The translations under genes and the position numbers were made by a program. A stretch of DNA of 63,364 nt, from positions 1 through 63,364 of IMG/VR virus record IMGVR_UViG_3300033978_000202; one strand, 5' to 3'. The notes beneath the pieces were generated by a model that was not told the origin of the DNA, ran no database searches, and saw nothing but the letters and a program-made list of their open reading frames with translations. Below are positions 1-19,700 of this stretch, piece after piece. Each line of letters starts with the position of its first letter. Within the stretch, counting starts at the first letter, position 1. This DNA comes from a virus (taxonomy: Duplodnaviria > Caudoviricetes).

Positions 1-230
1 ATATACCGGTTTTGCGCAGATGGACCCGATCCGAAAACGACTTTGTTTTGAAGGGGTGGGGGTCTGAAATGGTCGGGCTCTTGCGGATTTTTTGCCTTTT
101 TCCCTCCTGCTCCTGCGCCCTGCTCCTGCTCCCTGTCTTGCGTCCGCTCCTCCTCCCCTCCGGTCCTCCGGTTACCGGTCACCGGCTGCCGGTCCTCCTC
201 CGGTTGCGCCCCTCCTCCCCTCCGCCCTGT
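1..230. repeat. Left copy of direct terminal repeat (or assembly overlap of a circular contig)
   Basis: 1-230 matches 63129-63364 except for one fewer CTGCTC hexamer; strongly C/T-skewed. Confidence 0.95.
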
Positions 231-244
231 GTCTTCAAAGACAC
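229..244 (+). repeat. 16-bp quasi-palindrome GTGTCTTCAAAGACAC, copy 1 of 8
   Basis: Exact motif; 7-bp inverted arms around CA. Confidence 0.9.
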
Positions 245-399
245 TAAAAAGAATTAAGAGAAGACGAGAGGAGCGAGGCTACCTCCCCTCCCCTGTCTGA
301 ATGTGCAAACAATTGACAGGGATTGAACACAGGTTAAACATCTGAAAAACAGAACGTGGAAAACGTGTGAAAAATAATTTTGAAAAAAAGTAAATAAAA

Positions 400-430
400 T
401 TTGGAATGAACGAGAATTGAACTATATTTG
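400..430 (+). promoter_or_regulatory. Bacteroidota primary-sigma promoter (early P1)
   Basis: TTTG(400-403)-N19-TATATTTG(423-430), 20 nt upstream of ATG 450. Confidence 0.8.
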
Positions 431-449
431 ATAAAATTTTATACACACT

Positions 450-1037
450 ATGAGCAATCTACTACGAATCGAGGCTGACTTTCTCCGCAGGTCGGAGGTC
501 GCTTCAGCCCTGCGCTTGCAGGAGGTGCGCACGATACAGCGCACCATCACCAACGCAAAGAAGAAAAAATTTGAGCAATCTCTCGCCCTGTCTCAGCACG
601 TAAGCGCAGCGTTCACGTGGTTCAAGTCTGACGAGGGTCAGGCAAAGTTCAGGGAGGAGGGCATCTCGTGGACGGCTGAAGACTTTGGGCTCAAGGTCTT
701 CGGATGGCAAAAGTCATTTTTTTACAAGATGGTCAAGGTCGCTGCTGTACCTGCTGAGGTAGTCGAGCGCTACAGCGCACAGGCTGACGAGAGTGGCGAA
801 GATGCTCAGCGCTCAGTCGAGGAGCTCCTCAGTTTTGCAAGGGCTGCGGAAAGTGGCACAGATGGCGGTGGAGAAGATGCTCAGCCACGTGCTGAGGTAG
901 TGCTCAGCCTGTCGTTCAATCATCCTGACGGAAAGGTCACCCTGAAAATTGATGATGCAGGGCAGGTGAAAATCAAAGGGGCTGAGAGTCTCGAGCAGGT
1001 GCGCAACGTATTAAACCAATTTCTAAACCAATTCTAA
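450..1037 (+). CDS. Early hypothetical protein, possible HTH DNA-binding protein (195 aa)
   Basis: First ORF after P1; segment AEDFGLKVFGWQKSFFYKMVKVA is HTH-like; leader ATACACACT-ATG shared with next gene. Confidence 0.6.
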   Translation: MSNLLRIEADFLRRSEVASALRLQEVRTIQRTITNAKKKKFEQSLALSQHVSAAFTWFKSDEGQAKFREEGISWTAEDFGLKVFGWQKSFFYKMVKVAAVPAEVVERYSAQADESGEDAQRSVEELLSFARAAESGTDGGGEDAQPRAEVVLSLSFNHPDGKVTLKIDDAGQVKIKGAESLEQVRNVLNQFLNQF

Positions 1038-1049
1038 ACCATACACACT

Positions 1050-1931
1050 ATGCAAACAGGTATCATCTACAGAAACACAGGAGAGCGTTCACGTGGTCAG
1101 ATAGCGCACTATCACGGAAAGCCATCACCCCTGCATCACGGCAAGACTCCGCACAGGGCTGACATCGCAGGGCTCAAGAAAGCCGAACAGCGCAACGTGC
1201 TGCATTTTGACGGCAGCGAGTACAGCAGCAGGTTCACCATCGGCTTCGAGATTGAGAAAAACAGCCTACACAGGGCAGCGGTGAAAGAGTATCCGCTCCT
1301 GTGCGGTTTCGAGCGTGACGGCTCGTGCGGTTACGAGGCGGTGACCCACATTTTGCCCCTCCTCCCTGCAGGTCAGTGGCGCAACAAGGTCTTCGACCTG
1401 TTCGTACAGGCTGAGAAGATTATTGATGACAGGTACAGCCCCTCAGACAAAAAATGTGGCGGTCACATCACAGTGGCTGTGCAAGGGCTGACAGGTGACG
1501 AGCTCAGGGAGAAAATCCGCAAGAACTGCGGTATCATCCTCGCCCTGTTCCGTAAGCGGCTCGATAACAGCTACTGCAATCACAACAGGAGGCTGCAGGG
1601 TAACAATGAGAGCAGCCACGCAGGTGGGTGGCATCACAAGTATCAGACAGCCCTCGTAAAGGGCAACACGCTTGAGTTTCGCCTCCCCTCACGTGTCGAG
1701 AGTGTCAAGCAAATGATTCGCAGGTACGAGCTGTTTTACGAGGTGGTGAACTTTTCAATCAACAGCCCGAGCGGTAGCCACGATGCACTGCTCAAGCGCA
1801 TCGACCCCATCATCCTGTCAATGTACAACGGAGACAGGGCTAAGGCTGACGAGGTGCTGCGCCTATCAAAGCATTTCCGCAAGTACATCATCACAGGGGA
1901 GAGACATCAGGACATCATCCCCTTTGTCTGA
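1050..1931 (+). CDS. Putative amidoligase (COOH-NH2 ligase, glutamine synthetase fold)
   Basis: Motifs TIGFEIE, DGSCGYE, CGGHITV, TLEFR. Confidence 0.75.
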   Translation: MQTGIIYRNTGERSRGQIAHYHGKPSPLHHGKTPHRADIAGLKKAEQRNVLHFDGSEYSSRFTIGFEIEKNSLHRAAVKEYPLLCGFERDGSCGYEAVTHILPLLPAGQWRNKVFDLFVQAEKIIDDRYSPSDKKCGGHITVAVQGLTGDELREKIRKNCGIILALFRKRLDNSYCNHNRRLQGNNESSHAGGWHHKYQTALVKGNTLEFRLPSRVESVKQMIRRYELFYEVVNFSINSPSGSHDALLKRIDPIILSMYNGDRAKADEVLRLSKHFRKYIITGERHQDIIPFV

Positions 1932-1944
1932 GGGGAGAGGGGCG

Positions 1945-1960
1945 GTGTCTTCAAAGACAC
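1945..1960 (+). repeat. 16-bp quasi-palindrome, copy 2
   Basis: Exact GTGTCTTCAAAGACAC, intergenic, 6 nt before hammerhead 1. Confidence 0.9.
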
Positions 1961-1966
1961 TGCTCC

Positions 1967-2019
1967 TGCTGTCTCAGCGTGTGTGCGCTGACTGACGAGC
2001 TCCAAAGAGCGAAACAGCA
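1967..2019 (+). ncRNA. Type III hammerhead ribozyme (predicted cleavage after C1973)
   Basis: Stem III TGCTGT/ACAGCA; GUC site; stem I TCAGCG/CGCTGA with loop TGTGTG; core CTGACGA 1992-1998; stem II GCTC-CAAA-GAGC; GAAA 2011-2014. Confidence 0.93.
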
Positions 2020-2040
2020 AACCATAAAAATCTAAACACA

Positions 2041-2274
2041 ATGACAAAGCAAACCATCCTCACCATCATCCTTGCCATCATCCCATCTTATCTGTCGCTG
2101 TTCTGTTCAGCGCAGGGGGCAACCATCCTGCTGTGCGCAACCACAATGATCGGGATTATCATCACAGGTGCGCTCAGTGACGAGCACAAACTGACGGACA
2201 AACTTCGCTTAGCGTGGATACTGCACTTGCTTAGTGTGTGCGGTGCGGTAGCCTTTCACAATATCGCAGGTTAA
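2041..2274 (+). CDS. Small hydrophobic membrane protein (77 aa) between two hammerheads
   Basis: 2-3 hydrophobic segments; A-rich leader like neighbouring genes; TAA stop lies in stem I of hammerhead 2. Confidence 0.7.
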   Translation: MTKQTILTIILAIIPSYLSLFCSAQGATILLCATTMIGIIITGALSDEHKLTDKLRLAWILHLLSVCGAVAFHNIAG

Positions 2275-2329
2275 CTGACGAGCTGTGAATCAGCGAAACG
2301 GGAGCTCGCTCCCGTCTTAACCAAATTGT
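2258..2329 (+). ncRNA. Type I hammerhead ribozyme (predicted cleavage after C2316)
   Basis: Stem I GGTTAA/TTAACC, extended by ACAAT/ATTGT past an internal loop; core CTGACGA 2275-2281; stem II GCTG-TGAAT-CAGC; GAAA; stem III ACGGGAG-CTCG-CTCCCGT; GUC site. Confidence 0.93.
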
Positions 2330-2336
2330 AAGCACT

Positions 2337-2882
2337 ATGCGCAAAATCACAGAGCAAATCGTGCGCTCTTTCCTGAGAGGAGAGAATCGCACCATCGGCA
2401 ACAGCCGGAGCGAGAACGGGTCGCTGTTCCTGTTCGACAATCGTATCGCTGAGTACAGAGGCAGCGAGTTATGGATAACCAACGCAGGGTGGACAAGCAA
2501 TACCACAAAGGAGCGGCTCAACGCCCTTCCCGGGGTTCGCATCCATCAGCGCAGAGGCGAGTGGTATCTGAACGACATTGCGTGGGATGGTGGATGGGTT
2601 CACGTGGGGTCGTACACAGGCAGCGTGGATGAGGAGGTGGAATTTGATATGACAAGCAGGTGGATGGACGCAGGGTACAGCAGACCAAATTATGCGGTGT
2701 TCCATACCCATAACGAAGCGGAGCTGAGCCAAATCGAGTTCATCCTGAACGAGGCAGGGATACCAAATCGCAGACACGAGACAGACACAGATGGTCGGTG
2801 GCTGCCCAACCACTTCATCGTGGTGCTGCCTCAAGATATTGACAATTCAGTCGCATTAATCACTAAAAATCTATACCAATGA
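2337..2882 (+). CDS. Phage hypothetical protein (181 aa)
   Basis: Long ORF in early operon; GWTSNTTKERLNAL resembles a common phage early-protein motif. Confidence 0.75.
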   Translation: MRKITEQIVRSFLRGENRTIGNSRSENGSLFLFDNRIAEYRGSELWITNAGWTSNTTKERLNALPGVRIHQRRGEWYLNDIAWDGGWVHVGSYTGSVDEEVEFDMTSRWMDAGYSRPNYAVFHTHNEAELSQIEFILNEAGIPNRRHETDTDGRWLPNHFIVVLPQDIDNSVALITKNLYQ

Positions 2883-3256
2883 TTAGAATCATCCGAGAGG
2901 CACGTATTGAGCATTGCACTGAGTACTCTCTCAACTTCGACACAGACAGAAACGGAGGCTATGCCTTCGACTGCAATCACAAAGGCGAGGTGTTTGATAT
3001 ATCACCCGAGGGTCAGCGCAACTATGAGCGCTGCCTGAGCGGTGAGGTCAAGACTATTCGCCCCCCATACATCAGAGAGCGCAACTACACAAAGCATACC
3101 TATGCGGTAGGTGAGTGCTACTGCGGTGCGCCTGTAGAGCTACAGCCCGACAGCGAAGGGCTGTGCTATTGTCACTGCGGACAGGGCTATAACACAGCAG
3201 GACAGAGCATACGCCCACGCTCAGAGTGGGAGGAGAGATATGAGGATGACTATTAA
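2879..3256 (+). CDS. Hypothetical Cys-rich, probably Zn-binding protein
   Basis: CYCG...CHCG pairs; ATGA overlap with upstream ORF. Confidence 0.7.
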   Translation: MIRIIREARIEHCTEYSLNFDTDRNGGYAFDCNHKGEVFDISPEGQRNYERCLSGEVKTIRPPYIRERNYTKHTYAVGECYCGAPVELQPDSEGLCYCHCGQGYNTAGQSIRPRSEWEERYEDDY

Positions 3257-3275
3257 TAAACCAAACCAAAGCAAT

Positions 3276-3434
3276 ATGGAGCGTGAGTTTTTATACAAAG
3301 TTTTCTATGGTAAGGTGCTCGTCAAAACTATAGTCGCCCACACAAGGTGGGAGGCAATTGAGTTAGTCTATAGCAGACTGATTGGCGAGTATCCTCACCT
3401 CATTCGGAGTCAGTTTAAGGCAAAAAGAATTTGA
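3276..3434 (+). CDS. Small hypothetical protein
   Basis: Start moved to MEREF after an A-rich leader. Confidence 0.55.
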   Translation: MEREFLYKVFYGKVLVKTIVAHTRWEAIELVYSRLIGEYPHLIRSQFKAKRI

Positions 3435-3460
3435 TATGTTCAGAAATTGTCGTATCTTTG
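3430..3460 (+). promoter_or_regulatory. Bacteroidota primary-sigma promoter (early P2)
   Basis: TTTG(3430-3433)-N19-TATCTTTG(3453-3460). Confidence 0.8.
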
Positions 3461-3488
3461 TCTATCTTTAGTTCATTAATCGGGTTCT

Positions 3489-3504
3489 GTGTCTTCAAAG
3501 ACAC
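3489..3504 (+). repeat. 16-bp quasi-palindrome, copy 3
   Basis: Exact motif in the leader between P2 and ATG 3525. Confidence 0.9.
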
Positions 3505-3524
3505 TGCCCACAAACCTAAACACT

Positions 3525-4625
3525 ATGTGCGTAATCATTATCAAGCAACAGGGTCAGCGCCTACCCAAAGAGGTCGCAAAGACATCAGGCAGGGTCAATC
3601 CTCACGGACTCGGGGTCATTTGGATGGACACGTTTGAGATAACTTATCACAAGTCGAAAGACTACAAGGTGCTCGACACAGAGCGCCCTTTCATTGCCCA
3701 CTTCAGGTACGCCACAGTGGGTGCAATCGGCATCGAGAACACGCACCCATTCCCCTGCGGTGCAAACAAAAATGAGTGGCTGATGATGAACGGCACAATC
3801 TATGGTAAGGGCAACAAGACTGAGTGTGACACGAAGGTGCTCGCTCGGGAGCTCGGCAACAAGCCACGCCACACGTGGAAGAAAGAGCTCGAGCAATACC
3901 CCTGCAGGTTCGTATCAGTCAACGTGCGTAATCGCAGCTACCAAATCTATAACAAAGAGCTGTGGGTTCAGAGGGATGGTATATGGTACAGCAAAGCCAA
4001 CGTGCTCGAGGAGCATCTCGTGGCTGTCTATGGGACGCTCAAGAAGGGTCACGGCAACTACTATCATCACCTGACTGAGAGCAAGTTCATCGGCAAGGGT
4101 GTAACCAAAGACAAGTATCCGCTCATCGTAGAGGGGCTGCCATATTTAATCGAGGAGAAGGGCAAGGGCTACAATGTAGAGGTCGAGGTGTTCAAGGTTG
4201 ACGATGACACGTTCAAAGACCTTGATGCGCTTGAGGGGCATCCAAATTGGTATCAGCGTAAGCAGATACCTGTCAAGCTAAAGGATGGCAAGGTTCTCAC
4301 CTGTTGGGTGTACTTCAATCCGACCAAGACAAGCAAAGGTCGCAAGATGCACAAGTCGTACACAGGTCAGAGCTACCGGCAAGAGCCTGCGAAATCGTGG
4401 CAGCCTGCGTTCACATTTTGGGAGCCACAGCGCACAATTGACGAGCCGATAGTTGACGAGCTGCAGCTACCTGACGACCAAGAGTTCACCGTAGCTGAGG
4501 AGTGCCCTGTCTGTATCAATTGTTTCAACGACCTTGAGCACGACTTCTATGGCAACTACTACTGCAAAGCCTGTGGTGAGTGGTTCAGTGAGAATGAAAT
4601 CATTAAATTCGGATGCGCAAACTAA
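3525..4625 (+). CDS. Class II glutamine amidotransferase fused to gamma-glutamylcyclotransferase-like domain and C-terminal Zn ribbon
   Basis: Start moved to Met-Cys (MCVII, Ntn nucleophile); NPHGLG, HFRYAT, NTHPF, MNG; VYGTLKKG and LDALEG (GGCT); CxxC motifs. Confidence 0.85.
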   Translation: MCVIIIKQQGQRLPKEVAKTSGRVNPHGLGVIWMDTFEITYHKSKDYKVLDTERPFIAHFRYATVGAIGIENTHPFPCGANKNEWLMMNGTIYGKGNKTECDTKVLARELGNKPRHTWKKELEQYPCRFVSVNVRNRSYQIYNKELWVQRDGIWYSKANVLEEHLVAVYGTLKKGHGNYYHHLTESKFIGKGVTKDKYPLIVEGLPYLIEEKGKGYNVEVEVFKVDDDTFKDLDALEGHPNWYQRKQIPVKLKDGKVLTCWVYFNPTKTSKGRKMHKSYTGQSYRQEPAKSWQPAFTFWEPQRTIDEPIVDELQLPDDQEFTVAEECPVCINCFNDLEHDFYGNYYCKACGEWFSENEIIKFGCAN

Positions 4626-4630
4626 ATACT

Positions 4631-4822
4631 ATGGCACACATAATAATCCAAGAACAAGAAAACAGAATGGTGAGAATCGACATCGAAGGAGAAGAGAAAG
4701 TACTTGCGTCTATCATAGCTTCGGCTATAATGAAAGACCCACACTTCGGTATCCTCGTGCTGTCGGCACTTGCTGTAATCGCTGAAGAGCAAACTAAATT
4801 CCCTGACATAAACCCAAATTAA
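4631..4822 (+). CDS. Small hypothetical protein
   Basis: Tightly packed ORF; AAATACT-ATG leader. Confidence 0.55.
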   Translation: MAHIIIQEQENRMVRIDIEGEEKVLASIIASAIMKDPHFGILVLSALAVIAEEQTKFPDINPN

Positions 4823-4827
4823 AAGCT

Positions 4828-5028
4828 ATGACACAGCCAATGGACGAACAAGAAAGACTGATGCTAATTCAGCATCTTATTGACAGACTTCTTTACCTTG
4901 AGGAAGAAAAGCGAAAGGAGTTCTTATCTTATCTCGATGCACTATACTGCGTGTATCCTATACCAAGAGAAATCAAATATGGTAAGGACGCTTTCATCGG
5001 TGCTGATAATTGTGACGAAAATTTTTAA
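4828..5028 (+). CDS. Small hypothetical protein
   Basis: Tightly packed ORF. Confidence 0.55.
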   Translation: MTQPMDEQERLMLIQHLIDRLLYLEEEKRKEFLSYLDALYCVYPIPREIKYGKDAFIGADNCDENF

Positions 5029-5031
5029 GCT

Positions 5032-5406
5032 ATGGAAAGACAATTACTTGAAGACATCTTTGTTACTGCCCTCGAAGGGGGCAGTAACTATTGGTATCAC
5101 ATCACCGCTGAGACCAATCAGAAAATCAGAAAGGCTGTGCCACGTAGTGAAGACCCTTACTTAGCAACAGCTATGCTCACCGCAATTCTTGATCACGGAG
5201 TGAGCGTAGAGATACACGATGCTGAGAATCCCGACGAGGTTCTCGGGGTGCTGAGCTACGAGAGAATCAAAGAGCAGCTCGAAGACATCGACAGACACCT
5301 TGACTACAGATGGGCGCTTGAGGCGCACCAAGATGAGGTCGGAGATGCAGAGAGCGCAGACATCGTATTCCAATACCTTGTAATGGGAGACGTATGGTTC
5401 TCGTAA
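5032..5406 (+). CDS. Acidic phage hypothetical protein (124 aa)
   Basis: ALEGGSNYW and DAESADIVFQ segments; operon packing. Confidence 0.7.
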   Translation: MERQLLEDIFVTALEGGSNYWYHITAETNQKIRKAVPRSEDPYLATAMLTAILDHGVSVEIHDAENPDEVLGVLSYERIKEQLEDIDRHLDYRWALEAHQDEVGDAESADIVFQYLVMGDVWFS

Positions 5407-5552
5407 CAGCCAAGTGGATACGCTGCATAGCGTGCAGACGTATGTTCACACAGACAATCTACAAGAGAAAGAAAAGTAAACCTGAGTGTCCACATTGTAA
5501 AAAGATTAATGATGATAGTTCAAACCATACACGAAATCCTAAATCCGTTTGA
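5394..5552 (+). CDS. Small Zn-ribbon protein (52 aa, below ORF-track cutoff)
   Basis: Manual translation MVLVTAKWIRCIACRRMFTQTIYKRKKSKPECPHCKK...; fills the apparent gap. Confidence 0.6.
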   Translation: MVLVTAKWIRCIACRRMFTQTIYKRKKSKPECPHCKKINDDSSNHTRNPKSV

Positions 5553-5739
5553 CGTGGAGACACCGCTCGGTACGGGCACAGCTCTGTTTCTGATAGCAGG
5601 TTCTATTCATTCCAATCCTCAGTTCATCGTACGACTTTACAATAGTGGAGCTGTACGGACTATTGACCAAACCGAAATCACTATCTACGGTAATCCAATG
5701 GACGGGCGTGGATGGGATATTAAATCAACCAATATATGA
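5509..5739 (+). CDS. Small hypothetical protein
   Basis: ORF in operon. Confidence 0.6.
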   Translation: MMIVQTIHEILNPFDVETPLGTGTALFLIAGSIHSNPQFIVRLYNSGAVRTIDQTEITIYGNPMDGRGWDIKSTNI

Positions 5740-5879
5740 AACAGAGAATCAAACTACTCGGGGAGCTTCTTTACTTCTTCTTTATCGCAACACCGGTATT
5801 CCTGCTGACCATAACAGCAATATACGTGGGGTTCTTTTTCTACGATACCTATAACCTGATAAAAAAAATTAGGAAATAG
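5736..5879 (+). CDS. Small single-pass membrane protein (47 aa, not in ORF track)
   Basis: Manual translation MKQRIKLLGELLYFFFIATPVFLLTITAIYVGFFFY...; ATGA overlap. Confidence 0.5.
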   Translation: MKQRIKLLGELLYFFFIATPVFLLTITAIYVGFFFYDTYNLIKKIRK

Positions 5880-5923
5880 AAAAGTTTTATACTAATTTTG
5901 TACCAAATCTAATCAAATTAACA

Positions 5924-6151
5924 ATGAAAAAAGAAACATTTATCAACAGCGGTCGCATCACAGACCTCAAGACATTCCTCAATTTAAGACCCAATGAAGC
6001 CCTGCAATTTGACTGCACAGATGTTGTGCTGTACGAGGATGGGCACTACATTCAGGTACTCAAGACCGGTCACTTCTTCTATGACGGTTTTGCTGACAAG
6101 AAATTGGATAATGTAGAAGAATTTATGTGGAAAAAAATTGACATTAATTAA
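5924..6151 (+). CDS. Small hypothetical protein
   Basis: Preceded by TAATTTTG (5893-5900), a possible -7 element. Confidence 0.6.
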   Translation: MKKETFINSGRITDLKTFLNLRPNEALQFDCTDVVLYEDGHYIQVLKTGHFFYDGFADKKLDNVEEFMWKKIDIN

Positions 6152-13538: not shown

Positions 13539-13797
13539 CCTCTTCTTCTTTCTTATCCTTGAAAGACTTTAGGATATGAGCCACTGACTCGATGGTGGTA
13601 AGACCAAGTGATACTGCAACAAGTACAGTTACGCTATACACCAATGAATCTGCAGGAGCAAAGTGAGATTCACTATGTGAGTTGTCCCACATCGTCCAAA
13701 ATAAAAACATTGCTCCGATTATTCCCACGAGCCTCTTGCTTGAGTTGTTACTCTCAGAGGAGAAGAATCCTCCCATCCATTTGAATAGTTGTTTCAT
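13531..13797 (-). CDS. Two-TM membrane protein, holin-like
   Basis: SSKRL followed by two hydrophobic helices and a charged tail. Confidence 0.55.
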   Translation of the reverse strand: MKQLFKWMGGFFSSESNNSSKRLVGIIGAMFLFWTMWDNSHSESHFAPADSLVYSVTVLVAVSLGLTTIESVAHILKSFKDKKEEEVN

Positions 13798-16700
13798 TTT
13801 TTTTGTTTTTCTTTTCCGTAAATAGTGTTTCCTCCTGATTGCTTAGGCACGTATTCATACATCTCATCTTTTATCTCACGCCTAATTCTTTCTTTTTCTT
13901 TTCTCATCTCGCTTTTCATCTTCTCAATATCATAAAGAACTCCACCCTCACCATACAAATCCTCATACATCTCAGGGTAGTAACGCTTCATATCTTCCTT
14001 GCCAATCTTATTCATCGGCTTGGTCACTTCTGCTTTCTCTAAATCCTTATAGAGTTCTTTGTTTACAATCTTACGGACATCTTTGTAAAGAGGAATGAGC
14101 CCAAGGTTACCCATTATCTCAAGAGGAATACGAATACCTACCTCTTTTTCACTACGCTGTATAGCATCAGCCTGTTTCTTAGGTTCCTCTGTAGCCTTAC
14201 GAATCATCAAATCTAATGTCTTAGCTGATGGACCAAACGGACCAAGCATATTCATAAGCAAGTCTCCCATATCCGTCTTCTTACCTTTCTTCTCAGCAGG
14301 GATAACGGTATACTGAAGAGCATCTTTGTATGGGTCATACTCTCCTTCACGAAGGAAGTCGAGATAGTTTTCATTTACTCTTTCTACCCCATATCCAATC
14401 AGATTCTTGGTTGCGTTACCAAAGTCACGACCTAATAGTAATGATGTAGCAGAAGACAACATACCCTGACCAATCTTTTGCTCGATTGACTTCTCGTCAT
14501 CCTCATCTTCATCAGGCACAAACAGACCAACTAAAGCTGAAGACAAAGCCTGAGTAATCAAAGTATAGGCTGTCATCCTTGTGGCAACCGCAGCGAGCAA
14601 AGCAACGCCTGTCTTTCTTGACAATGTTCCATTACCCATAGCCGCATTGATGCCGGTACGAGCAGTGATATATTCATAGATCAAGAAGCGAGTCATAAAG
14701 TTATTGAAGATGTTGAACCCTCTGATGAGTGCGCTTTGATTCTGCTTAGGCGTACCCTTTAGGATGCCCATAAAAGCATTGTCAGTTGCACCGGTAAGTA
14801 CAGTCTTCTCATCAGCATAGTTCTTAGCTGCGTCAAGAGCTTCTTTGTTTGAAGCCATATACCGCTCGTCATTCTCAGCTATCTTATCAAAGTCAGGCTC
14901 GGCTCCGGTAATCTTTTTGAACTCATTAGCAAAGGCTCCGAACCACATTGGACGCATCACCATCTTATCAGGAGTAGCAATCAACGCATCAGCCATTGTC
15001 TCTACAGCGTTCTGATACTTCTTCAAAGAGATATTATATATCTGCTGTATTTTATTTCTGACATCATTTTGAGCCCTACCACCTTTTACGCCACTTGCTT
15101 GGTTCATTATCGAAGCATCAATAAGTCTTCCACTAAGAGTATCGTGAGGGAATAAACGGTTAGTTTGTTTACTTCCTACGTTGCTCATAATAGTAGCAGC
15201 AGTTGGCGACAATACAACACCCCTATTTTTAAGACCGGCTTTGAAATCTTTTGGAGCAGCTATCATAGCAAACGCTATGTTAGATGATAACTCCCCAACA
15301 AACCTTGGCGCACTTGCAAGTACAGCACGGTAGCCTTGCTTAGACATAAAGTTTACAGCATCATCAAGTAAAGATGTAGATGTAAAGTTATCTGTCAGCA
15401 GGTTGTCAACAGCTTCCTCATAAACTCTTTCAATAGCATTGAAAATGTTTTGCTGTTGTTTGGTTGCGCCTTCCTGCTCCATCAGCTTTGACGTTTCATT
15501 AATGGTCTTACGCCCTGTGCGTATGGGTTCAGTAAGATAGTAATCCATTAATACAAACTTAGCACCACGATTTGCTGAAGCAAACACGTCAAAGTTCAAT
15601 GGAGCAACCTTACCTGTACGTGCAATCAAAGACTTTGCTTTGGTAGAGGGACGCATTGATTCGTTGTAGCTATCAATGAAAGCCACACCGGATATAGCTT
15701 CGTCAGGTCTATGCTCGTGAAGTGTATTCAAGTGTACGTAATTATTCAATGGAGTAATCTTGTCTCCACGGACAATAGCTGCAGTGTATACAGCTTTCTC
15801 ACGTAAGTCCTCATTTACTTTTTGAATAGTCTTGATCGCATTTCTTTCAGCCTCATTGAATGAATCATACAACTTTTGGTTATCTATATTACCATTTGCA
15901 TCTGTGTACTCATCGTAAATTTCCTGAAGCATATCAGCATCACGCTCGCCAAAACTTGACTTACCCTTTCTAATGTGGTCAATTGTTTTCTTCAAGTACT
16001 CTGCTGCCGGATTAACCTGTTTGCTATCAGGGTTTGAATCGTGCTCAAGCTGTACCATATAGGTCATCATCTTGAACTTAGACATCAATGTTTTATTAGC
16101 GTCATTCTTGAATGATTTAGCTACAGCTTCTTGAGCTCTATCTAATTTATTATTTAACTCAGTGACTGCCTTTTGGAATTTAGCCTGCGCATCAGCAGCT
16201 TGAGCAAACAGTGAATTGAATATCTCCTTCGTGTTATAGTTGCCAAACACTTGGTCAATGTAGTACAACGGGTTTCTTCTTATCAACTCAACAAGACCAT
16301 CCTTCTTTGTCAGCCATCCTTTTATCTTGGAATATATTGAACTAAGCTTCAGAGGCTTTGCTTTTTGAACTGCATCATTAAGTGTCTTTGATTTATTGAT
16401 GGCGTTCATACGCTCAACAATAAGCTGAGTATAATGTGGAAGGTATCCGTTGTTTATGTTGTCAATCAAACGCAGCAGGTTCTTTAACTGTGCGTTGTCA
16501 AGACCATATACTGCATCTGTCTTGAGAAGTTTCTTTAACTCACGAGCAAGGTTACGCTCGTCTGCAGTTGGCAATCCTTCAGGATTTAGATCAGCAAGCT
16601 GTGCTGCATCTGCCATCACTTGATTCTCTGCCTCAATCTCAGCCTCACTACGTGGGTCCTTCTGTGTCATTGGAAGAATGGATGACTTATACTTACGCAT

Positions 16701-19700
16701 AATCTCAGCCTCCTCTTCAGTAATCACTTCGTCCTTCACCATATCTCGTATGGTTCCGGCATAGTCAACCTTGCCCTCATCATCAACAAGCTTACCATCA
16801 TAAGAATTGAATCGCTCAGCAAGCTCAGCAGCAAGTGACACATCTGCATCTACTGCATTAAGAATGTCATTAACATCTTTGGTGACAGCATTAATCTCTT
16901 CAAGTTGCAACACAGCCCTACGCTCACCCATCATTGTGACAAGCTTTGTGTATTTTTCAAACACAGCGTCAGGGATTAGGGTTGGCTTGATGGCAAGAAG
17001 GCGTTGCATCAGTGGGCTCAAGCTCTCTGCTATACCTATCTTAGTCTGTGCGTTTCTGCGTGCAGTTGGTAAAGCTTTGTTGATGGTACCAATCTGATCG
17101 GCATAGTTGGCGTTCTTAAACACCTTAGCCATATAGTCTACGAACCTACCTATTGAGTTGGGGTCAAACATATTGACACCACTAAACTTGCTAATGATAG
17201 CTGCCGTTTGCTTGGCTGTAATGAATCCCTTGTCTGTCATAGTACGCAAATACTTAACAAGCTCTCCGCTTGTGCGCACCCATAGCTTAATAGCATCCTT
17301 GGCTCCCTTTGCTTGGTCAGCAAGCTGCTTTTTCAACAGCTCGTACTCTGACATTGTAATCTCATTCACGTCTTTAGTCTCGCCAAAAAGTTTCTGAGGC
17401 TTAGGAGCTGCCTTCTCACGCTTACCAAATCGTTTGCGTATATCACGCACCATCTTCTCACGCTGCGTATCTGAGGCTGTCTCATATACTCGTGAGCCTT
17501 GCAGGTAAGCAATGGCGTTTTGCATTGCTTCCTCATTTGTATTGCCACGCTGCAGAGATTTTCTTACCACACCCTCAAGCTCGGTCATCATCCTGTTGAA
17601 TCCGGGTAGCTCCATCTCCGTAGTATCCTCCGGTTGCGCTTGCGCATCACGTTGTTGAGCAAGGGCGCTGATGGAATCAATTACATCTTGCTCGCTCACA
17701 TTGTTCTGTGCGGCAGCTCTTGTGATAGCTTCTTGCAGTGTGATACCTGTAGCGACAAGAGCCTTCACTGTTTTGATAATGGCTTTCATAACCGGTATAG
17801 CTATGTTGATACCGGCAGTTTCTCTACCAAACTTGGTAAGGTCACCATCTACCTTATCCAAAAATTCTTTTACTCTTTCAAGAGTAGTAGCATCTTTAGT
17901 GTCTGCTGTCATCAGCTCCTCCGTTGTTGGAGCAGCACGTTCTATATCACCTGTATCTGTCTCGTTAATCTCGTAGAACTCTGCAGGTAGAAGACCAATC
18001 TTCTGATCAGCGAACTTAAACTTCTCATATATCTGCTCCTCAATCTTACGAGCCTGTGAGTTAAGTCCTTCTTCACGAAGGGCACGTGCTTGCTGACGCA
18101 GTTCTTTAAGCGCCTCATTCTCTCCTGAGAAGTTAACGTATGAGTTCTGACCACGTGTCTCTGTGGTCATAGCCGCACGTGCAAGTGGTGAGTACATACG
18201 TGCGTGTACGTTCCAAGCGTTCTCCTCGCCTTTAGGACCAAATGAATTGCCGAGCTCAGCGTGTCCAAAGAAATCGTGGATGGCACGGAACACGTCATTC
18301 ACGAGCATAGTCTGCCCGTTCACATCTTTGAATCCTGAATCTCTTAGTAATGGGTTCTCTGCACGCTGCTCTTCTGTAATGGCAGCATCACCAAATCCTG
18401 ACTCGGTAGAAAAGATTTTCATACGCTGATTGTTTCTCAGGTCGTCAATCATCTCCTGAGAATTGGCGTATGGTTCTTCGTTATTTATCTCAACAACATA
18501 ACCGGCATCGAGGAAATCTTGATACTGATCAAGGGTTTCCTTAGCCATCGCTTCGTATGCAGCTCTGACTTGGGGGTCAGTTGGGTTGTGCTGCATAGCA
18601 GCAAACGCATTAGCTATGCGTCTTGCTCTTGCTTCGTCTAACCTTTGCGATCCGTTGTACCTCGGTCTTTTCTTGCCGAAAACTCTTTGATAATATCTAT
18701 CCGCAATTTGCGCAACTCTCTCGAGGGGCTTATTGAAAAGTCTGTTGCCGGGGCTTGGCTTGAAATACTCTCCGCTATCAACGCCTTGGAACTCGGCATC
18801 CCTCCTGACTGCTTCTTCGACTGCTTGAAGAATGTTTTGCCCACTCGGTCCAAGTTCGGACCCTTTAGCTTTAATTCTTCCAAGAATTTTTTTCCTGCTT
18901 GCAACGCCAACTCTTCGGGAATCGACCGGACGGAAGTCTTGTTGTTCATAATTTATTCCTTTTGATTTAAGTAGTTCTACAAATGTACCAATGTTTTTCT
19001 GTAACTGTGGGTCAGCAAAGTCTAATACGTCAATGAATGATACCTCACCTGTCTTCTCGTTGATACTAAAGTCAGTGATACCTGCTTCCTTTAACGCATC
19101 TATTGCACCATCTACATCAGATACTTTAACGCTATACTCATTGGCGTTGTGCGTCTTACCACCCTGTTCGGTATACTGTGCAGCAATGGCTGCCTCCTGC
19201 ACCTGTGGAGCAAATGCACTTACGAGTGCAGCATATTCTTCAGCCTGCTCGATGGTAGCACCCTCAAGGTCTACAGCGTTTGATATTTCTACAATCCTTT
19301 CACCTTTATTATTCTCATACCCACCAATAAACTCAAGGACGTTGGTCTTGATACCAAGTAAACTGCCAATATCTGCAAGTGTTTGCAGGTATCCCTTATA
19401 CGCAGGAGACTCTCTTAATGCTGCAGCTTCTGAGGTAGACCCAACTTGTGTGTTAAAGAATGGAGCTACATTTACCCGTGTCTTTGAAGACACTTTTTGA
19501 AGAGCATCTAATTCGTTAAGAGCTTCATCCACTGCTATGGTTTGATCTCCAATAGTGATGGTCTCTTGATCATCTTCTACAGCAGCGAGCGCTTTGATTA
19601 GCGCATCTTTCCTTTCTTGTTGTTCGGGGCTGAGGACTTTTTCACCCTCTTGGGTAATGACTTCAAGTCCTGTTTTGGGTTCTCCTTGCGCCAACGCTTC

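Follow-up and report, generated by a model that had tools for sequence, protein, structure and literature searches.

Two hammerhead ribozyme motifs of different topology as probable punctuation units in the early region of a freshwater phage genome

The window, by which we mean the whole stretch of viral DNA that was analysed (63,364 nucleotides), carries two hammerhead ribozyme motifs in its early region, one of type III and one of type I, and ORF77 is the sole ORF that lies between them. The features of this region are given here with the evidence on which each is placed.

400 to 430, plus strand: P1, candidate bipartite promoter of the Bacteroidota type, upstream of the first ORF of the early region (at 450) (pattern search)
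1050 to 1931, plus strand: ORF293, the gene upstream of the type III hammerhead (ORF list)
1938 to 1967, plus strand: 13-bp hairpin that directly abuts the type III hammerhead (MFE fold)
1967 to 2019, plus strand: type III hammerhead ribozyme, predicted cut after C1973 (GUC) (sequence, scanner, covariance model, fold)
2020 to 2040, plus strand: A-rich, unstructured leader without a Shine-Dalgarno motif, from the type III ribozyme to the ORF77 start codon
2041 to 2274, plus strand: ORF77, a small hydrophobic protein of 77 aa (ORF list)
2269 to 2322, plus strand: type I hammerhead ribozyme, predicted cut after C2316 (GUC) (sequence, scanner, covariance model)
2317 to 2336, plus strand: 20-nt leader, the would-be 5'-OH end of the downstream mRNA (sequence)
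2337 to 2882, plus strand: ORF181, with a Kyano_Gp96-like N-terminal domain (Pfam PF23790, E 4.8e-10; phrog_554)
3430 to 3460, plus strand: candidate promoter P2, which bounds the transcription unit holding the hammerheads (pattern search)

Read directly from the sequence, the type III element has a stem III of 6 bp that includes the A15.1-U16.1 pair, the triplet GUC, a stem I of 6-7 bp with a 6-nt loop, an intact CUGACGA core, and a stem II of 4 bp followed by GAAA. The type I element has a stem I of 6 bp (2269-2274 with 2317-2322), again an intact CUGACGA core, a stem II of 4 bp with a 5-nt loop and then GAAA, and a stem III of 7 bp with a 4-nt loop and then GUC. The G10.1-C11.1 pair is present in both. 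Both also conform to the general hammerhead core, namely, C3-U4-G5-A6-N7-G8-A9, G12-A13-A14, the A15.1-U16.1 pair and an H17 that is not G, and in both three helices surround this core, each element being one of the three circular permutations. A scanner that requires the canonical core and checks the topology gave exactly two hits on both strands of the 63-kb genome, and these are the two elements; in 100 dinucleotide-preserving shuffles of the window it gave no hits. The first-pass annotation had described two canonical hammerheads with intact cores on the coding strand, and both direct reading and the scanner confirm this. As it had also held, the two are not duplicates of one another. The type III element stands as it was annotated, a full hammerhead at 1967-2019 with intact core and stems that is cut after 1973, and for the type I element the cut after C2316 was correctly placed but the span of 2258-2329 was slightly too wide.

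The local MFE fold of 1936-2022 (z = -4.53) consists of the 13-bp hairpin and the three-way junction of the hammerhead. In the type I element, stem I is weak, with 2 G-C and 4 A-U pairs, and is absent from the local MFE fold. Beyond the core, positions T14, T18, A38 and A40 in loops 1 and 2 of the type III hammerheads are invariant or nearly so, a sequence pattern that is compatible with a loop-loop tertiary contact. Hammerheads need a contact between the peripheries of stems I and II to be active at low Mg2+; when one was sought for the type I element none was identified. Comparison with Rfam, a check that had been proposed at the outset, came out differently for the two elements. There were no matches in the whole window at the gathering threshold. 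In E-value mode, in a 601-nt search (1850-2450), Hammerhead_3 (RF00008) matched the type III element at 1966-2020 with 44.4 bits (E 1.8e-8), which does not reach its curated gathering threshold of 48.5 bits. The type I element was not seen by Rfam, as no model matched at 2269-2322 and RF00163 (Hammerhead_1) and RF02275 (HH9) were without a match at E <= 10. The Rfam type I models appear not to cover the form with a long helix III. Covariance models that we built from relatives, run with filters off, scored 69.8 bits for the type III element and 73.4 bits for the type I element, and their next-best scores in the window were 12.8 and 18.5 bits, respectively.

The gene between the two ribozymes had been described as a hydrophobic ORF of 77 aa and the only one that they flank, and the ORF list agrees (2041-2274, GRAVY 1.07, about three predicted membrane helices). 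The TAA stop of ORF77 sits within stem I of the type I hammerhead. Neither ORF77 nor ORF293 has a hit in Pfam or PHROG, and ORF77 has just one 95%-identical cluster in a set of 5.8 billion proteins (proteins of 42-135 aa). The bipartite consensus used for P1 and P2, which we take to be the Bacteroidota-type promoter, is matched 8 times in the window, where 2.28 matches would be expected; none of 100 shuffles had as many as 8. The polycistronic RNA with both hammerheads probably begins at P1, and in the plus-strand pattern search of the early region no promoter-like match lies just before either ribozyme. The PHROG hits of the large virion proteins include no RNA polymerase annotation. The hairpin at 1938-1967 holds one of eight exact copies of a 16-nt motif (this copy at 1945-1960), and another copy, at 3489-3504, follows P2 without a ribozyme. 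We considered whether this motif is a hairpin promoter like those of N4, and this was set aside as less probable because copies are also found inside ORFs and one copy, with a T-run, follows a late gene.

Related phages were chosen by protein homology, either to ORF181 or to the primase, and not by ribozyme. One relative picked by ORF181 homology, L001, carries 5 hammerheads in 3 kb. The primase has at least 597 relatives. In 80 loci picked via the primase the strict scanner found 46 motifs in 25 loci, all on the gene strand, and the covariance models, run on both strands of 84 sources (1.48 Mb), gave 65 type III and 13 type I matches, all of them on the early-gene strand and 27 of them outside the training sets. 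Beyond the window's pair, there are 76 hammerheads in the primase-related phages, and all are co-oriented with the early genes. Among the 46 loci that have at least 7 kb upstream of the primase, 30 carry 1-4 hammerheads; the 69 hammerheads in these loci are all placed upstream of the primase, at distances of 3445-9883 nt, with none inside the gene or beyond it. The hammerheads are dispensable because 16 of the 46 well-covered relatives do not have one, nor is there one, by scanner or by model, in the early region of MW202828.1 (L005), the closest relative in GenBank. A megablast search of positions 1-6000 against GenBank phages gave no match. The carriers are a large family of freshwater phages, probably podophages of Bacteroidota. 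A natural class of hammerheads with variant cores also exists in this phage family, and one variant has a U-U pair at 10.1/11.1.

The positions of the hammerheads in the relatives follow rules. They are nearly always intergenic, a long ORF spanning only 4 of the 76, and 66 of the 76 are at most 60 nt before the next ORF that begins with ATG. Family-wide, the leaders that follow them are 52% A and 5% G, and a pentamer resembling a Shine-Dalgarno motif is present in 2 of 76. In the primase family the ATG comes 13-17 nt after the type I module in 12 of 12 cases and the upstream stop codon is inside type I stem I in 8 of 12, while in a wider set from other phages the ATG comes 12-18 nt after the module in 81 of 104. 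The stop codon in stem I was tried as a general rule and rejected, since of the 104 modules in the wider set, 26 have an upstream frame, open for at least 30 codons, that ends at the TAA, and in 28 such a frame ends at the core TGA, which shows only that the upstream ORF enters the module.

The type III element had been taken to belong with ORF77, but it is instead tied to the preceding gene. Homologues of ORF293 are present in 22 sources, and in 18 of these a type III hammerhead follows at about 30-135 nt; the homologues that retain it have 46-69% protein identity. In the relatives, 53 of 64 type III hammerheads are preceded by a hairpin of at least 8 bp, versus 28 of 640 random windows. The downstream boundary may be type I, type III or absent in the relatives. 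For instance, ORF181 homologues were found in 18 sources, and the junction before them holds a type I element in the window and in L011 and a type III element in L001 and L075. The blocks between ribozymes contain 1 to about 10 ORFs (251-3802 nt) and the identity of the genes varies; the paired hammerheads with variable cargo that the first-pass annotation had suggested looking for in related phages are there. The type III stems covary, with double-sided changes in 14 of 16 pairs (42 sequences, 171 cells), a level reached by none of 500 shuffles. In the type I element, double-sided changes are seen in 8 of 15 pairs (9 members), in stems II and III, and stem I is invariant. The sequences in both sets had been preselected by the scanner for pairing, so that their 100% pairing is partly by construction, but this does not apply to the 27 matches that were found by the covariance models alone.

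Because the relatives carry co-oriented intergenic hammerheads, a type III element that is tied to ORF293 and variable blocks between ribozymes, we read the pair in the window as punctuation. It is likely, judging from sequence comparison, that the two elements are self-cleaving units of a modular ribozyme punctuation system that cuts the early polycistronic RNA. Under this proposal host RNA polymerase probably starts near 400-430 and ORF195, ORF293, ORF77 and ORF181 onward would be transcribed as one RNA, which would be cut after C1973 and after C2316, during or after transcription, to give three mRNAs. The first mRNA would contain ORF195 and ORF293 and would end in the 13-bp hairpin, 6 nt and a 2',3'-cyclic phosphate; the cut at C1973 would leave only these 6 nt between the hairpin and the new 3' terminus. 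The second would be the ORF77 RNA, with the folded type III body at its 5'-OH end and the folded type I body at its 3' end. The size of 343 nt (1974-2316) that had been given for this monocistronic RNA holds. The third would have a 5'-OH end and then a 20-nt A-rich leader, immediately followed by ORF181 as its first gene. The likely benefit is that neighbouring cistrons would be uncoupled in stability and folding and their ends protected, and a second likely benefit is that each downstream gene would get a standard short A-rich leader without a Shine-Dalgarno motif. In the early transcript of T7, RNase III cuts between cistrons, and the mRNAs upstream of the cuts keep stable 3' hairpins. The resemblance lies in the intercistronic cuts in an early polycistronic RNA and in the 3' hairpins upstream; the difference is that in T7 a host protein enzyme makes the cuts and leaves 5'-phosphate and 3'-OH, whereas here the RNA would cut itself and leave 5'-OH and 2',3'-cyclic phosphate. 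A protein-free analogue of RNase III processing was the second option that the first-pass annotation had offered, and it is the one favoured by the comparative data.

It can also be argued that the main role is at the 5' ends of transcripts, where the ribozyme would remove a triphosphate leader and leave a 5'-OH mRNA with a defined leader that serves translation initiation or escapes 5'-end-dependent decay or sensing; the hairpin motif would then be part of a promoter or start signal. We regard this as rather unlikely for the pair, even though some observations fit it well. In the cultured relative Flavobacterium phage elemoF (NC_055853.1; host Flavobacterium sp. BAL314), a type III hammerhead is found at the head of the early operon, in a divergent region of 145 nt where there is no cistron upstream, and the distance from cut to ATG is tightly constrained. 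Ribozymes beside start codons in RNA viruses are reported, in the passages cited here, to promote translation (PMC13725137), and a hammerhead in a halovirus is described as lying 13 nt before the start codon of a helicase (PMC3088659, in the part cited). In the window, on the other hand, neither ribozyme is preceded by a promoter-like match, and the stop codon of ORF77 is part of type I stem I, so that this element must share its transcript with the upstream gene. The hairpin motif is found within ORFs as well, and beyond a late gene together with a T-run, which is unlike a role in promoters only.

Less likely still is that the hammerheads are mainly selfish or mobile modules that settle in intergenic gaps and cleave with no benefit to the phage. 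At least 119 stretches of viral contigs contain the type I module with its invariant stem I, as many as 5 copies can occur in 1.7 kb, the copy number ranges from 0 to 5 among close relatives, and the same junction holds different topologies in different relatives, all of which would be expected of such modules. Settlement of this kind does not account for the strict co-orientation with genes of all 76 elements in the family loci, for the fixed geometry relative to stop and start codons, or for the retention after ORF293 in 18 of 22 sources at 46-69% protein identity with compensatory changes in the stems. Co-orientation, fixed geometry and syntenic retention therefore argue for purifying selection on a function in place.

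Hammerhead cleavage products have 5'-OH and 2',3'-cyclic-phosphate ends, which is the chemistry of RtcB substrates, and two proposals build on it. The broader one is that the modules do more than cut and that re-ligation, catalysed by the hammerhead itself or by RtcB, leads to circular mRNAs or to the skipping of cassettes at the RNA level. Stem I is identical in every type I module of this phage and of many others, and therefore an RNA freed between two such modules has a 5' end that could pair again with a ribozyme body, either the one at its own 3' end or that of another fragment. We consider such re-ligation highly improbable; if it were true, the early genes of phages would have a system of alternative processing based on ribozymes. 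The mixed type III/type I bracket of the window would need a host ligase to form a circle. The narrower proposal, that a host RtcB-type ligase closes the 343-nt RNA into a long-lived circular mRNA, would turn the message for the small membrane protein ORF77 into a circle that exonucleases cannot attack, and we give it very little credence indeed. The ends left by cleavage would suit such a ligase, the fragment 1974-2316 has the complete ORF and its leader, RtcB is present in Bacteroidota (there is a match in the control genome, Bacteroides thetaiotaomicron), and single small ORFs between two hammerheads recur in L036, L084, L062 and L019. Against this, the 5' end of the fragment, a type III stem I hairpin, and its 3' end, a type I stem III hairpin plus UC, are not complementary and cannot rebuild either ribozyme, as had been held originally of stem III of the first and stem I of the second at a ligated junction. 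Searches of the phage for RtcB and RNA_ligase (Rnl2-type) families gave no match. Homologues of ORF77 were found in only 3 of the 84 sources; at 35-41% identity, the copy in L009 is unflanked and that in L001 shares its block with another gene. The blocks between ribozymes, moreover, reach 3.8 kb with about ten ORFs. According to the passages cited from Perreault et al. 2011, circular or spliced products were sought from the analogous clusters of prophage hammerheads and were not detected (PMC3088659). Of the sequencing runs with the phage, none was listed as RNA; four labelled RNA-Seq were rated as probably DNA, and no joint from 2316 to 1974 was listed in their short contigs, which have no bearing on cleavage, ends or junctions. 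The dedicated circularising cassette for ORF77 that had been proposed is thus not supported, as the ends are non-complementary, the phage has no ligase match and the bracket is not conserved. Finally, that the motifs are chance look-alikes or decayed relics that do not cleave is hardly tenable, for the gathering thresholds of Rfam were not reached but none of the 100 shuffles gave any hit, every core position is canonical, and 78 related elements have compensatory changes and obey strict rules of context.

We return to the reading of the pair as punctuation units and to the systems with which it can be compared. Taken alone, the pair is an ordinary case of an arrangement that was already described in 2011. 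The passages cited from Perreault et al. 2011 describe clusters of prophage hammerheads in Clostridium scindens, Azorhizobium caulinodans and the ardA locus of Agrobacterium tumefaciens that flank variable genes and that cleave in vitro and in E. coli (PMC3088659). As in the window and its relatives, several co-oriented, intergenic hammerheads of mixed type lie close together on the coding strand and flank varied genes or short blocks. It was proposed there that long phage transcripts are cut into mRNAs of gene or operon length, and circular and spliced products were considered. As far as those passages go, the present case is different in that it concerns a lytic-looking 63-kb freshwater phage family with Bacteroidota-type signals, in that the type III units are coupled to a strong upstream hairpin, and in that the type I unit has an invariant stem I that carries the upstream stop and lies 12-18 nt from the next ATG. 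Cleavage by those clusters was demonstrated in vitro and in E. coli, whereas the pair in the window is known from its sequence. HHphage of the haloviruses HF1 and HF2 is likewise an early-region hammerhead of a lytic virus and lies 13 nt before a start codon, but it is described in the part cited as a single copy with an atypical core insertion (PMC3088659), unlike the canonical cores and the multi-copy arrays found here. The ribozymes of RNA viruses that are linked to translation are also of type I with a long helix III and, in 5' or intergenic UTRs, cut a few nt before the start codon; their carriers in the passages cited are eukaryotic RNA viruses (PMC13725137), whereas here it is a DNA phage with bacterial translation.

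The proposed system also resembles synthetic insulators of the RiboJ type, which place a hammerhead and a hairpin before a coding sequence and so give it a 5' leader that is independent of context. These insulators are engineered from a plant satellite RNA and have the hairpin after the ribozyme, whereas the arrangement here is natural and has the hairpin before it. In viroids and retrozymes, hammerheads bound unit-length RNAs with ligatable ends that are mostly non-coding and that replicate or retrotranspose. Two hammerhead cuts would release a unit-length RNA with ligatable ends here too, but in those elements the ribozymes are alike and their halves re-pair at the junction, while in the window the topologies differ, the termini are unable to pair again and what they enclose is an ordinary phage gene.

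A review from 2019 describes the purpose of self-cleaving ribozymes in bacteria and phages, in the part cited here, as undefined (PMC6765202). The phage family is an unusually clean data set in this respect, as it offers dozens of genomes with 0-5 hammerheads at rule-bound early intergenic sites, two types of module with distinct geometries, the core-variant class and a cultured Flavobacterium phage that has a hammerhead. Hypotheses on processing, stability and translation are therefore directly testable in this family, and in hosts that work without Shine-Dalgarno motifs the modules could be used as natural insulators between cistrons.

Direct reading of positions 1800-2500 and a scanner of our own for the type I and type III topologies, run on both strands of the whole window, gave exactly two hammerhead motifs, and the scanner found no match in 100 dinucleotide-preserving shuffles of the window. 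The two motifs and the gene between them are:

1967-2019, plus strand, type III hammerhead
2041-2274, plus strand, ORF77 (77 aa), the sole ORF enclosed by the hammerhead pair
2269-2322, plus strand, type I hammerhead

The type III hammerhead has a closing stem III of 6 bp, a GUC preceding the predicted cut after C1973, a stem I hairpin of 6-7 bp, a complete CUGACGA core, and a stem II of 4 bp whose first pair is G-C, followed by GAAA. The type I hammerhead has an open stem I of 6 bp, the same core, a 4-bp stem II, GAAA, a stem III hairpin of 7 bp and then GUC, with the cut predicted after C2316. This confirmed the two hammerheads of different topology that the first-pass annotation had placed on the coding strand, with cuts after 1973 and 2316, and the arithmetic and the ORF list agreed with its 343-nt fragment holding a single 77-aa ORF; its type I span, 2258-2329, was slightly wide. 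The Rfam check that it called for was only partly favorable, as a gathering-mode scan of the window gave no matches, the type III element scoring 44.4 bits against RF00008, below the 48.5-bit cut-off, and the type I element being matched by none of Rfam's models. Our own covariance models, run on the window with filters off, each recovered its own element alone, the type III element at 69.8 bits and the type I element at 73.4 bits, with next-best matches of 12.8 and 18.5 bits, respectively. When 1936-2022 is folded, the local minimum free energy (MFE) structure combines a 13-bp hairpin with the hammerhead three-way junction downstream of it (z = -4.53), and the local MFE fold of the type I element contains stems II and III and lacks the A-U-rich stem I. 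Inside ORF77, 2099-2112 is a near-repeat of the type III substrate strand, and this repeat could give the same core an alternative closing (model R2 match at 1986-2112, 18.5 bits, E 0.013), probably by chance.

The window covers a complete virus record, 63,364 bases long. Plus-strand genes from 450 to about 12,950 include those for a Sak-type annealing protein, an exonuclease, a primase and a helicase, and the minus strand carries long structural genes. A 2752-aa protein (13794-22052, minus strand) matches solely PHROG families without known function. The primase shares 81% identity with its counterpart in MW202828.1, an uncultured podovirus from a spring; the Elemovirus (Flavobacterium phages) primase is 43% identical over the N-terminal third only, and the remaining matches are Bacteroidota phages. 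The DNA runs containing this phage are lake-water metagenomes. A primase search gave at least 597 related viral contigs, from which 80 loci were retained, and locus L001, retrieved with the protein of ORF181, the gene after the type I hammerhead (55% identity), has five hammerheads inside 3 kb of its early region.

With the strict scanner, 25 of the 80 primase loci yielded 46 motifs, every one on the gene strand. Covariance models built from alignments of 42 type III and 9 type I sequences gave, at E <= 0.01 in 84 sources (1.48 Mb, both strands), 65 type III and 13 type I matches, all on the early-gene strand and 27 of them outside the training alignments. Primase has 7 kb or more of upstream sequence in 46 loci, of which 30 have one to four hammerheads and 16 have none; all 69 of these hammerheads lie 3,445-9,883 nt ahead of the primase start, and none was found within or downstream of primase. 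All 613 cells of the type III alignment pair. The pairing percentage of both alignments is partly circular because their sequences were preselected with a scanner requiring paired stems; strand bias, location and the model-only matches are free of that circularity. Double-sided changes occur in 14 of the 16 type III pairs, the covariation score was reached by none of 500 shuffles, and pairing falls to 37-47% when the partner columns are slid by 1-3. Of the 15 type I pairs, 8 have double-sided changes, in stems II and III, and five of the six stem I pairs are invariant. A U-U mismatch at the 10.1/11.1 pair, usually G-C, is present in 17 of 64 type III hammerheads of the relatives, accompanied by a GUA cleavage triplet in the examples listed, and in many loci the variant lies downstream of a ~365-aa gene related to gamma-glutamyl cyclotransferase. 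This recurrent natural variant next to the core may cleave more slowly or conditionally. Its occurrences include, besides others:

L001, 2929-2979
L018, 3789 and 6556
L024, 5517
L026, 5248
L036, 5548
L061, 5358
L064, 5148

ORF77 is not a special cargo of the hammerhead bracket. Homologues of ORF77 could be detected in 3 of the 84 sources; the one in L009 has no flanking hammerhead, and the one in L001 shares its block with a RadC-like gene. The upstream type III unit is tied to ORF293, the gene before the type III hammerhead: in 18 of 22 sources such a unit lies downstream of the ORF293 homologue (protein identity 46-69%). What lies between the homologues of ORF293 and ORF181 varies and often starts with some small hydrophobic ORF (GRAVY about 0.9-1.4). 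The next ribozyme after the ORF293-linked unit is type I in the window and L011, type III in L001, L036 and L084, and found only past ORF181 in L045, L061 and L064. Blocks between consecutive ribozymes measure 251-3,802 nt and hold 1 to about 10 ORFs. Brackets around just one ORF are seen repeatedly, with a hydrophobic protein inside them in L036, L084 and the window and a hydrophilic one in L062 and L019. The search of relatives for paired hammerheads with variable cargo, suggested in the first-pass annotation, did give varying blocks, but not a conserved bracket around ORF77. A wastewater contig (run X17) matches the window to 2058 and then diverges inside ORF77, which hints at strain variants with another gene in this slot.

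The 45 nt upstream of 53 of 64 type III units contain a hairpin with 8 or more uninterrupted pairs, compared to 28 of 640 random windows, and in 48 of the 64 this hairpin shares the inner motif of the window's hairpin. This 16-nt motif, an inverted repeat of 7 bp around a 2-nt centre, has eight exact copies in the window (first base given for the minus strand):

229-244, plus strand
1945-1960, plus strand
3489-3504, plus strand
58331, minus strand
41469, minus strand
34371, minus strand
19493, minus strand
11958, minus strand

Intergenic copies have longer, covarying stems, and one copy lies downstream of a 473-aa late gene and is followed by a T-run. Among the copies compared with the ORF list by position, those at 19493, 41469 and 11958 are within long ORFs, the last being antisense to the helicase gene. 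The motif occurs in 82 related sources as 75 plus-strand and 51 minus-strand copies, and 30 of the 75 directly precede a hammerhead or lie inside one. The hairpin may serve to protect RNA ends, to terminate transcription or to bind a protein.

Among the 76 hammerheads of the window, L001 and the primase loci, 66 have the next ATG-ORF no more than 60 nt past their end and only 4 are spanned by an ORF of at least 80 aa. Type III units begin about 23-40 nt past the upstream stop, and the ATG follows about 20-30 nt on, or about 45-55 nt where an extra hairpin intervenes. In type I units the upstream stop codon is within stem I in 8 of 12, and the ATG is 13-17 nt past the module in all 12. A makes up 52% and G 5% of the leaders after the hammerheads, and an SD-like word is present in just 2 of 76, which fits hosts not using Shine-Dalgarno pairing, and Bacteroidota do not use it. 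The type I module with the window's invariant stem I was found in at least 119 viral-contig stretches, including those of the IMG/VR contigs L087-L166, for example:

L126, 1258-2955, type I module array
L147, 5217-5627, type I module array

Among the stretches listed, arrays reach five copies per 1.7 kb and three in about 410 nt; among the matches listed, successive modules are 122-3334 nt apart and the ATG is 12-18 nt past the module in 81 of 104.

A bipartite, promoter-like pattern has 8 matches in the window compared to 2.3 expected, two of them on the plus strand of the early region:

400-430, plus strand, promoter-like match ahead of the first early ORF
3430-3460, plus strand, promoter-like match in the early region

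Upstream of the candidate early promoter, 60-300 is non-coding and C/T-rich with CCGGT-like words and one hairpin-motif copy. The pattern search of the window gave no match directly upstream of either ribozyme, and the ORF77 stop codon is inside the type I stem I, so that this stem has to be co-transcribed with ORF77. From these two observations we infer that a single RNA runs from about 437 to at least 3430 and is cleaved at 1973 and 2316. The first product would end in the 13-bp hairpin, 6 nt and a cyclic phosphate, the second would be an ORF77 mRNA with folded ribozyme bodies capping both ends, and the third would have a 5'-OH end and carry an A-rich leader of 20 nt ahead of ORF181. Self-excision of the ORF77 RNA is likely. 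A plausible payoff is that neighbouring cistrons would be independent in stability and folding and each downstream gene would get a standard leader. The cultured Flavobacterium phage vB_FspP_elemoF_6-3D (L006, NC_055853.1) has:

17867-17919, minus strand, unannotated type III hammerhead in the 145-nt divergent region heading the early operon
16045-16102, minus strand, weaker type I-like motif (30.7 bits), overlapped by a 35-aa ORF annotated on the other strand

Since this type III unit is at the head of the operon, trimming of primary leaders would also be in the repertoire of these elements.

It is highly improbable that the 343-nt ORF77 RNA is ligated into a circle, because its termini are unable to pair or to rebuild a hammerhead, neither an RtcB nor an Rnl2-type match was found in the phage and the bracket is unconserved; Perreault et al. 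(2011), who had the same idea for prophage clusters, report detecting neither spliced nor circular products (PMC3088659). A bolder, improbable variant concerns the type I arrays: because stem I is invariant, a fragment released between two modules could rebuild a hammerhead from its ends. A dedicated circular cassette is unlikely, and the first-pass reading of the pair as a self-excising, possibly circularising cassette for a membrane protein was half right.

A hammerhead arrangement of this kind is already known. [quoted passage not shown] A 2019 review holds that the purpose of such bacterial and phage ribozymes is still to be defined (PMC6765202), and a 2026 paper reports RNA-virus ribozymes adjoining start codons and puts aside DNA-phage matches as previously described (PMC13725137). 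In the literature searched, neither this phage family nor its hairpin-plus-type-III and invariant-stem-I type I modules were found to be described. The interest of these elements, which is moderate, rests not on the window's pair itself but on the regularities across the family and on a cultured relative in which they are testable.
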